25,366 bases of DNA from a virus (Duplodnaviria > Caudoviricetes): the IMG/VR virus record IMGVR_UViG_3300032321_000593, positions 1-25,366 of that record, one strand, 5' to 3'. Of this stretch, positions 16,754-18,270 are shown piece after piece. How positions within the stretch are numbered: position 1 is the first letter of the stretch; every line of letters starts with the position of its first letter. Made by a program: the position numbers and the translations under genes. Below the pieces are notes generated by a model. That model had not been told where the DNA came from, did not search any database, and was given only the letters and a program-made list of their open reading frames with translations.

Positions 16754-16791
16754 TATTCACAAATGTAATAAATTTTATTACTATTGAATAA
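16753..16791 (-). promoter_or_regulatory. Bacteroidota-type -7 promoter box for the packaging operon overlapped by a palindromic operator
   Basis: TACATTTG (16767-16760) 6 nt before the terS ATG; palindrome GTAATAAA-T-TTTATTAC (16765-16781). Confidence 0.65.
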
Positions 16792-17046
16792 TTAAAAATT
16801 CAAATTTTTAGCCCACTTAGCTTCATCAAAGAATCCGTTGGTCTCAAAGTTCCAGTTGAAATCCCTATCCCGTTCTACTGTAGGCTTCACTTTTTCTTTA
16901 ACGATGCGTGGAGTGATACCTCTTATTCTTAAACGAACACGCTCTTTGGCGATGCACATAACATCGGCTATCTGTTCTGGGGTAAGCCCTTTGGAGTGGA
17001 GTAGGAAGATGTTATCTACTTGTGCCTGAGTTAGGGGTTTTGCCAT
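16792..17046 (-). CDS. Small helix-turn-helix protein
   Basis: LTQAQVDNIFLLHSKGLTPEQIADVMCIAKERV fits an HTH pattern. Confidence 0.7.
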   Translation of the reverse strand: MAKPLTQAQVDNIFLLHSKGLTPEQIADVMCIAKERVRLRIRGITPRIVKEKVKPTVERDRDFNWNFETNGFFDEAKWAKNLNF

Positions 17047-17068
17047 AGTGTATGCTTTAATTTTTTAC

Positions 17069-17076
17069 TATATTTG
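17069..17076 (+). promoter_or_regulatory. Bacteroidota -7 promoter box on + strand
   Basis: TATATTTG = TAnnTTTG in an AT-rich context, 4 nt before the structured element; no clean -33 TTTG at canonical spacing. Confidence 0.65.
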
Positions 17077-17077
17077 T

Positions 17078-17186
17078 GGGGTAACAGCACGTTTAGTACG
17101 TCTGAAAGACGGCTCGTAAGAGTAGCACTTATCCCTGTTACGCAAAATCGATTTTCCAGCCGGTATAGGAATATGCCGGCTTTTTT
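17078..17186 (+). ncRNA. Putative structured small RNA of unknown family (~110 nt)
   Basis: Closing stem GUAACAG/CUGUUAC, hairpins CGUC-UGAAA-GACG and GCUC-GUAA-GAGU, flanked by a promoter box and a terminator on the same strand. Confidence 0.7.
17158..17186 (+). terminator. Intrinsic terminator on + strand
   Basis: AGCCGGUAUA-GGAA-UAUGCCGGCU then UUUUU; G-U pair, GNRA loop and U-tract all work only on the + strand. Confidence 0.85.
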
Positions 17187-17191
17187 AAAGG

Positions 17192-17440
17192 TTAATAAGT
17201 AGCCGCTTTCACAGCCCACATTGCTGATTGTTCAGCAGCAATCATTGCCAAGTCTTTCAGCGTTAACCATTCTTTGAGTTCATCATCAGTCCATTTAGGA
17301 TTTCCTGCTGCACCATCAATCAGGTCAATTAAGTTAGCGGCAGCGACTTTGATGTCATTTACATAATCGCTTTCTGATGGGTTGTGATTAACCCTTACAC
17401 GTCGTTCTCCAAGTGTTACTAATTTTTCAATCTGTTCCAT
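17192..17440 (-). CDS. Probable Acb2/Tad1-like helical-hairpin immune-signal sponge (anti-defence)
   Basis: 82 aa, LGERRVR..NPS start, two long helices and C-terminal A..EQSAMWAVKA, matching my recollection of the ExAxMW motif of the Acb2/Tad1 hairpin family. Confidence 0.6.
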   Translation of the reverse strand: MEQIEKLVTLGERRVRVNHNPSESDYVNDIKVAAANLIDLIDGAAGNPKWTDDELKEWLTLKDLAMIAAEQSAMWAVKAATY

Positions 17441-17775: not shown

Positions 17776-18270
17776 TTATATTTTAATTTCTTCTTCTAAC
17801 TTGTAAAGCATTTTTACAAGTTGGTTAATTTGCGCAGCACTTGCAGCACTTGCAGCCCTTGCATCACTTGCAGCAGCCCTTGCATCCCATGCAGCACTTG
17901 CAGCAGCCCATGCAGCAGCACTTGCAGCAGCCCATGCAGCAGCACTTGCATCAGCCCATGCAGCAGACAATTCTTCATCTGTAGCTTTACCGTTGGCGTA
18001 TTTTTCCGCAACATTACAAGCCTCAATACTTCTTTCATCAGGTTTATCTACCAGCTTCAATGCTTCTCTTGCACACCATACAGCGAATAAACGTAATGTC
18101 TTTGCATCAATAAACTTGTCTCGAAGTACAACCCAAAATCTGTCTTTAGCCGGGCAATTCTCCACGTTTAAAATATCTATTACCGTACCCGTCCAGTTTT
18201 CGGGTAAAAACTTTGCAGGGTCGTAGCATGGGTTTAAATCTCTGATTTCCTGTAGTGTGATTTGTTTCAT
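17776..18270 (-). CDS. Imm5-like helical protein with Ala/Trp repeat tail
   Basis: LRLFAVWCAREAL..DERSIEACNVAEKYANG..EELSAAW pattern resembles the Imm-5-like domain; AAAWAAAS repeats. Confidence 0.6.
   Translation of the reverse strand: MKQITLQEIRDLNPCYDPAKFLPENWTGTVIDILNVENCPAKDRFWVVLRDKFIDAKTLRLFAVWCAREALKLVDKPDERSIEACNVAEKYANGKATDEELSAAWADASAAAWAAASAAAWAAASAAWDARAAASDARAASAASAAQINQLVKMLYKLEEEIKI
17834..17966. repeat. Coding tandem repeat (24/21/9-bp GCA-rich units)
   Basis: GCAGCAGCACTTGCAGCAGCCCAT units and degenerate shorter variants. Confidence 0.9.

Follow-up and report, generated by a model that had tools for sequence, protein, structure and literature searches.

Comparison of related sequences supports a stand-alone small RNA gene, absent from Rfam, on the plus strand of a 25,366-base linear virus record (the window, by which we mean the whole stretch of DNA analysed; the record is about 43% complete). 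An earlier note on this DNA, made from the sequence alone, had proposed such a gene, and we regard it as very probable. The core of the case is comparative and consists of seven distinct copies of a conserved 61-nt module. The module is portable, and the reading that we prefer, with a probability of roughly 0.4, is that its RNA is a decoy acting in trans, whose fold would capture a host protein and which would not pair with a message; a decoy or protein-binding RNA had been among the roles raised in that note.

The RNA gene and its surroundings

The genes for terminase, portal, replication initiator, SNF2 helicase and ParB, all within the window, lie on the minus strand, and the terminase has weak matches (25-39%) among cultured phages. 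From the depletion of TAnnTTTG in the window (12 sites versus 26.6 expected), together with a box of this type at 16760-16767 on the minus strand, 6 nt before the start (16753) of a terminase-small-like gene, we infer a Bacteroidota host for the phage. Judged by its position, the 16760-16767 box is a near-leaderless promoter heading the packaging genes; it is kept in the sister phage G003, a variant box is found at L007, and a TAnnTTTG box also lies ahead of the early arm of another phage, G001.

The element lies between two minus-strand genes in a gap that, as described in the earlier note, measures 145 bp (17047-17191). Its promoter box, the 7-bp closing stem (17081-17087/17135-17141), the GUAA hairpin (17112-17123) and the terminator were all located where they had been claimed (Table 1); the transcription start at 17081 is predicted from the promoter box. 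The terminator hairpin spans 17158-17181 and has a GGAA loop, and the U-tract reaches 17186, leaving 5 nt to the stop of the convergent 82-aa gene. The claim that the element contains no open reading frame needs qualification. A 62-codon frame with a GTG start crosses it on the minus strand (17031-17219), but this frame carries no coding signal (6/17 codon variants are synonymous, with 0.26 expected), and we rejected a coding role on this basis. The palindrome in the linker may be an operator or a weak hairpin. The T-rich direct repeats may represent recombination microhomology, for which they are weak evidence because the region is AT-rich.

Table 1. Sequence features at the RNA locus, in window positions
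Feature	Position	Strand	Remarks
84-aa protein gene, weak HTH similarity	16792..17046	-	Divergent neighbour; HTH_23 E 0.059, below cut-off
7-nt T-rich direct repeat	17061..17067, second copy 17181-17187		Bounds the module
TAnnTTTG promoter box, TATATTTG	17069..17076	+	Bacteroidota primary sigma type; -12 to -5 from predicted start
Conserved 61-nt RNA core	17081..17141	+	49/61 columns invariant, n=7 distinct copies
P1 5' strand, pairs with 17135-17141	17081..17087	+	95.9% of cells paired
P2 hairpin, ACGU/ACGU arms and variable loop	17089..17101	+	RNAalifold consensus; preferred over the helix of the earlier note
Conserved CUGA-N-AGA strand	17102..17111	+	5' side of 3-bp helix with 17129-17131 plus internal loop, or T-loop-like element
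4-bp hairpin, GNRA tetraloop (GUAA or GAAA), G-U closing pair	17112..17123	+	Mean pair probability 0.82-0.88
Conserved 3' strand AGCACUYAUC plus one variable base	17124..17134	+	Alignment of copies
Perfect 12-bp palindrome in linker between core and terminator	17144..17155		Kept in L022
Intrinsic terminator, 10-bp stem, GNRA loop, U-tract	17158..17186	+	z -4.8
Acb2/Tad1-hairpin (sponge-like) protein gene, 82 aa	17192..17440	-	Convergent neighbour; PF24729 above cut-off

The 82-aa gene product has the hairpin domain of Acb2/Tad1 sponges (Acb2_Tad1_hairpin, PF24729, 35.5 bits versus a Pfam cut-off of 27), and a role as a cyclic-nucleotide sponge is putative. Its top two matches in BFVD are both Acb2/Tad1-hairpin proteins (E 0.011 and 0.073), and the PDB returned no match, either by sequence or by Foldseek.

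Copies of the core in three gene settings

Pattern scans yielded seven distinct full cores, namely those of the window, L008, L010, L019, L022, L029 and L033; the L008 type is shared by L002, L003, L009 and L041, the L010 type by L006 and the L022 type by L036. A model of the RNA, R1, scores the core copies at 92-94 bits, and the copies are about 90% alike. Further partial copies were found in contigs assembled from runs X2, X3, X4, X6 and X12; three studies of freshwater or lake sites supplied X4, X6 and X12.

The distribution is narrow. The loop pattern gave real copies in 3/3 viral matches and 6/40 metagenome matches, and in 0/4 matches of a GTDB species scan. When we rescored 33 of the 34 other metagenome matches with R1, leaving out L046 on account of its size (its flanks equal those of L016/L045), the best (L035, 24.9 bits) was rejected, covering only the middle that the pattern had selected. 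The exact central 23-mer matched no viral record. A 5' pattern (104 matches) and an ACGT-ACGT pattern (22 matches) recovered the known copies only, a promoter-plus-stem pattern gave none that was real by nhmmer among 120 of about 730 stretches, and BLAST against cultured phages and plasmids gave chance matches only. Two kinds of unrelated sequence turned up along the way. Three viral records, L243, L268 and L177 (about 301-373), share a similar 7-bp closing stem around an unrelated, partly variable interior; this element, which does not match R1, is possibly another small structured RNA. In the metagenome data, the locus pairs L030:1501/L040:1501 and L013:1501/L027:29 have related hairpin-rich sequence around the loop pattern, with no Rfam match at the gathering score and, by R1, no relation to the window RNA. 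An Rfam scan of 20 pattern-hit loci gave no match.

The full copies occupy three unrelated gene settings: that of the window phage type, that of a different phage type and that of a chromosome-like contig. In the window phage type, the RNA lies between the HTH-like gene and the sponge gene. The X3 contig has the same HTH-like gene start and promoter as the window, followed by a diverged core, and in the X6 contig (aligned with window positions 17085-17125) the start of an HTH-like gene, with a spacer, runs straight into core position 5 and no promoter intervenes; this copy appears to be broken or differently used. The sister phage G003 matches 13.4 kb of the window at 98% identity and has no RNA; in place of 16860-17190, where the window has the RNA and the 5' portion of its HTH-like gene, G003 (and L004) has 27 nt that resemble the 3' end of the endolysin gene of the second phage type. 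This junction, at 16859-17191 of the window, suggests that the two phage types have recombined at the sponge gene. At L007 the HTH-like gene is present and the RNA absent. By these two cases, the RNA is dispensable.

The second setting is a phage type of 32-33 kb (G001 and G002) that shares only short early-arm blocks with the window. Here the RNA is flanked by a spanin-like gene (a label taken from a lipoprotein-like N terminus, as the gene has no family match) and, in most copies, by a peptidase M15 endolysin gene; it has no terminator, and its orientation relative to the sponge gene is opposite to that in the window. An early-arm gene common to both phage types lies at 17776-18270 on the minus strand of the window, with other copies at L002:459-962 and L006:176-712; the L002 and L006 copies carry an expandable AAW/DAA-rich repeat tract and differ in its length.

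In the third setting (L022/L036), the match to the window is confined to 17069-17187, at 90% identity, and runs exactly from promoter to terminator, with no open reading frame between the two; the boundaries drawn in the earlier note thus coincide with a block of homology to an unrelated contig. The contig, which looks chromosomal, carries genes for a PBECR3 nuclease and a trypsin-like protein and an ORF that is DEAD-box-like by its motif. The RNA is convergent to the PBECR3 gene; phages and plasmids contain distant relatives of the nuclease (25-49% identity), most of them parts of head proteins. Repeats surround the RNA-PBECR3 unit (84 nt at L022:1212-1295 and 2315-2398; 68 nt at L036:284-351 and 892-959), which is also flanked by inverted TATAAC/GTTATA-type arms and a perfect 22-bp hairpin. 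By its sequence organization the unit is a cassette-like island in the chromosome-like contig.

A fixed pairing of the RNA with the sponge gene, as implied by the idea of an RNA decoy working beside a protein sponge, did not survive this comparison: the RNA was found in 3/80 sponge loci, all of the 32-33 kb type, and in 1/50 whole records, that copy being already known, and the L022/L036 loci contain no sponge gene.

Several features of the alignment point to an RNA gene on the plus strand. In 7/7 full copies the promoter box occupies -12 to -5, counted with the first stem base as +1, as a TATA or TACA variant in which one n position changes, whereas the 4-nt spacer between box and core takes five forms. 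PMC9723704 reports a position for the TAnnTTTG box that matches this -12 to -5 placement, and the same promoter consensus appears in PMC7366714, so the Bacteroidota-type promoter that had been assigned to the plus strand is borne out. Core identity in six genome pairs is 92-97%, compared with 74-86% at endolysin third codon positions. The contrast is weaker on the spanin side, where the 3' end of the spanin-like gene in the same copies is 87-100% identical (this stretch is out of frame, which voids codon-position labels). Changes at the N position of the GNRA loop, at a G-U closing pair and at one compensatory pair are consistent with the plus strand, and the minus strand folds almost equally (-12.6 versus -13.2 kcal/mol). 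Much of the invariance of the core falls in unpaired bases. The terminator, claimed in the earlier note as part of the gene, is present in the window and in the L022/L036 copy, where its loop changes from GGAA to GAAA and so remains GNRA, but it is missing from the five copy types of the other phage type.

Fold and comparison with known RNA classes

The whole 118 nt folds with a z of -2.7 (1/200 shuffles equally good), a signal that derives from the terminator; the 61-nt core alone shows no unusual stability (z -1.0, 31/200 shuffles). The RNAalifold consensus is a three-way junction formed by P1, an ACGU/ACGU hairpin (P2) and an arm with a short UGA/UYA helix, an internal loop and a GNRA hairpin. 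P1 has one compensatory change from G-C to A-U and two single mismatches at the two outer pairs, and 17088/17134 becomes an A-U pair in 2/7 copies. In the CUGA-N-AGA strand, position 17106 is A, G or U and position 17110 is C or A, the 3-bp helix with 17129-17131 is 100% paired with one change from G-C to G-U, and the tetraloop changes only at its N position across the seven copies.

The fold proposed in the earlier note holds in its closing stem and GNRA hairpin; its AGUAC/GCACU helix and UGAAA stem are favoured in the window copy only, which prefers the UGAAA stem with a probability of 0.97. Averaged over seven copies, the ACGU/ACGU hairpin has a pair probability of 0.55-0.65, compared with 0.27-0.28 for the UGAAA stem, and it exceeds 0.7 in five of the six other copies, L022 being split. 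The P2 loop differs in L022, and the partial X3 copy, which covers the 5' half of the core only, retains the two ACGU arms, with another loop of 6 nt between them, and has lost the 5' strand of the AGUAC/GCACU helix. The consensus model pairs 98.4% of cells compared with 96.0% for the earlier one. Covariation was too sparse to be significant in either model (74/500 and 65/500 shuffles, respectively, with seven copies); P2 shows none because its ACGU arms never vary. The ACGU hairpin and the UGAAA stem are mutually exclusive, and the models therefore leave room for their alternation as a possible structural switch.

Searches against described classes agreed with the view that the RNA matches neither a tRNA nor a known ribozyme and left its novelty relative to Rfam standing. 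Rfam 15, searched window-wide at E up to 5, gave one irrelevant match elsewhere, and local scans at E up to 10 gave at best 18.1 bits against a cut-off of 38, driven by the terminator, with Ocean-VII at 12 and 8 bits against 53.5. ARAGORN found 0 tRNA or tmRNA genes, the only acceptor-like part being the 7-bp closing stem. We found no description of the RNA in the literature; it may be listed in the Fremin catalogue (PMC10690425), and it resembles the orphan phage RNAs collected there as a structured intergenic candidate of about 60-70 nt from uncultured phages.

Possible functions of the RNA

We prefer a shape-based, protein-binding role since the RNA lies behind its own promoter box, is dispensable and conserves unpaired bases across unrelated neighbours. 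The host primary sigma factor would transcribe it at an early stage of infection or during a carrier state, giving a predicted transcript of about 105 nt in the window and a longer one where the terminator is missing. The predicted fold of this transcript is a junction at which the closing stem meets the ACGU hairpin and a GNRA-capped arm, and the invariant unpaired bases would then form a surface for protein binding. A single base-paired target is unlikely because the partner gene changes (sponge, spanin-like or PBECR3). As the RNA is dispensable cargo and lies, in both phage types, in the accessory zone, the likeliest partner would be a protein of defence or RNA handling.

The main rival is a cis-antisense silencer, since the module always faces an opposite-strand transcript. 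An antisense promoter with a stabilizing 5' fold would, on this reading, dampen the opposing operon by collision or duplex cleavage, acting on the lysis genes in the 32-33 kb phages and on read-through from sponge to terminase in the window. Gene layout implies that an opposite-strand transcript would cross the module in 3/3 settings, with no minus-strand terminator detected between the co-oriented minus-strand genes; the opposite-strand gene downstream has a leader that shares sequence with the promoter box, and in L008 the first plus-strand terminator-like site lies about 360 nt downstream, inside the spanin-like gene. Lambda OOP and P22 Sar are short RNAs that have their own promoter and terminator and run antisense to a stretch between cistrons of a phage operon. 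The window RNA is like them in having a promoter and terminator and in lying antisense to an intercistronic stretch, but unlike theirs its sequence recurs opposite unrelated genes, and it is far more conserved than antisense action would require: 49/61 columns are invariant across unrelated settings. We found no fixed cognate target, only three different convergent genes, and in the window and L022 the terminator ends the RNA at or just before the stop of the convergent gene. We consider cis-antisense silencing unlikely.

A self-cleaving ribozyme that trims its own transcript, whether derived from the hammerhead or of a new class, appears quite unlikely. The RNA resembles hammerheads (RF00163, RF00008; PMC3088659) in its three-way junction, in the CUGA that follows a helix and in the GAAA of most copies; CUGA-N-AGA lies directly 3' of a hairpin, C-GAAA then follows in 5/7 copies, and AUC lies ahead of the closing stem. 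In phage intergenic regions there are hammerheads whose cores hold insertions and whose stems can be as short as one pair (PMC3088659). The CUGA-N-AGA strand has one base more than the CUGANGA strand of the hammerhead with its C3-G8 pair; an A6a-type insertion is associated with low activity (PMC3088659). Threading the RNA through the core requires several insertions and a change at A13. In the type I arrangement there are three insertions, U at the A13 position in 2/7 copies, GUAA instead of the GAAA strand in 2/7 copies and A opposite A in place of the A15.1-U16.1 pair; in type III, no GAAA precedes stem III. The GUAA/GAAA change is what a GNRA loop permits, and no Rfam ribozyme model, including the hammerhead, matched at E up to 10.

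It is also improbable that the module works from the minus-strand mRNA, as a cis element or through a short leader peptide, to control the endolysin or HTH gene downstream, with the plus-strand box incidental. The near-equal folding of the minus strand, on which the AGUAC/GCACU helix has its full 5 bp, one frame that is open in 7/7 copies and the promoterless X6 copy would fit such a role. Against it, no gene lies directly downstream on that strand in L022, whose terminator faces the plus strand, and the promoter box persists beside a spacer that drifts; a leader peptide is further opposed by the lack of a coding signal, by the window copy, which has no ATG, and by the 1-nt longer loop of the partial X3 copy, which would shift the frame.

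The probability is slight that the module is a functionless, decayed or selfish hitch-hiker spread by recent recombination among co-infecting lake phages and their host. Its copies are no more than about 90% alike and form a narrow set, with none in the GTDB species scan or in close sister phages, and the T-rich direct repeats bound it. The identity of the core, however, exceeds that of third codon positions in the same genome pairs, substitutions fall in loops, in the spacer or in places that preserve pairing, and the divergent copy keeps its P2 arms.

P4 CI and P1/P7 C4 are immunity RNAs that are small, have several stems and use a constitutive-type promoter. The window RNA is like them in size, multi-stem fold and type of promoter, which would be a host-driven one, and its single strands are conserved and could pair with phage leaders in trans. 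Such an immunity role, which the earlier note had suggested, is nevertheless highly improbable. Unlike those RNAs, the window RNA is dispensable in a sister phage and has no C4-type match in Rfam, and the search for antisense targets in three phage records (G001 and G002, 95-98% complete, and the window, 43% complete) found no complement of at least 11 nt outside its own locus, and 1-2 complementary 10-mers compared with 2.9-3.8 for shuffled RNA.

The GNRA-capped short stem of the core, followed by AGCA, resembles the symmetric loop of SRP RNA. Together with the position beside lysis genes in one phage type, this resemblance raises the idea that the RNA mimics the apical domain of SRP RNA, binds Ffh and so changes how membrane proteins are targeted. 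We consider such a mimic highly unlikely and rejected a host SRP RNA: the 61-nt fold is branched, whereas SRP RNA is an elongated rod (PMC4091067), the stem has one pair more and a different 5' loop strand, Bacteroidota genomes carry their own annotated SRP RNA, and 0/3 records matched RF00169 at E up to 10, a model that found 13/14 control genomes and missed Bacteroides thetaiotaomicron, so that its sensitivity in the phylum is limited.

The preferred reading, that of a folded RNA binding a host protein, also has a more specific form that we consider quite unlikely. By analogy, the RNA would be a host-side inhibitor of a PBECR3-type RNase, taken up by two phage types that lack the nuclease and used as an anti-defence factor. 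The phages would express it from a host-type promoter beside the protein sponge and so disarm a PBECR3 defence. This proposal is built on one chromosome-like locus. The pseudo-ToxI and hijacked ToxI of phage PhiTE (PMC3475682) make up a likewise small and non-coding phage RNA that also occurs in host-side DNA; set beside it, the window RNA adjoins a predicted RNase gene (PBECR3, in L022/L036) and is non-essential, and the two share the proposal of shape-based action on a protein, although binding by the window RNA is putative. The layout of a ToxI-like type III antitoxin was nonetheless rejected. Unlike ToxI, the window RNA is present as a single copy and not as tandem repeats, has no evident pseudoknot and is convergent to the nuclease gene instead of upstream of it, and the Rfam families ToxI, CptI and TenpI gave no match to it.

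On present sequence comparisons, the RNA represents a small uncatalogued family within a known kind, the stand-alone small RNAs of phages, with a narrow distribution and thin covariation. Phage counter-defence is known mostly from proteins, and RNA examples are few; here a 61-nt module passes intact between two phage types and host-like DNA. If the RNA does inhibit the adjacent PBECR3 nuclease, the PBECR3 domain would gain a function.
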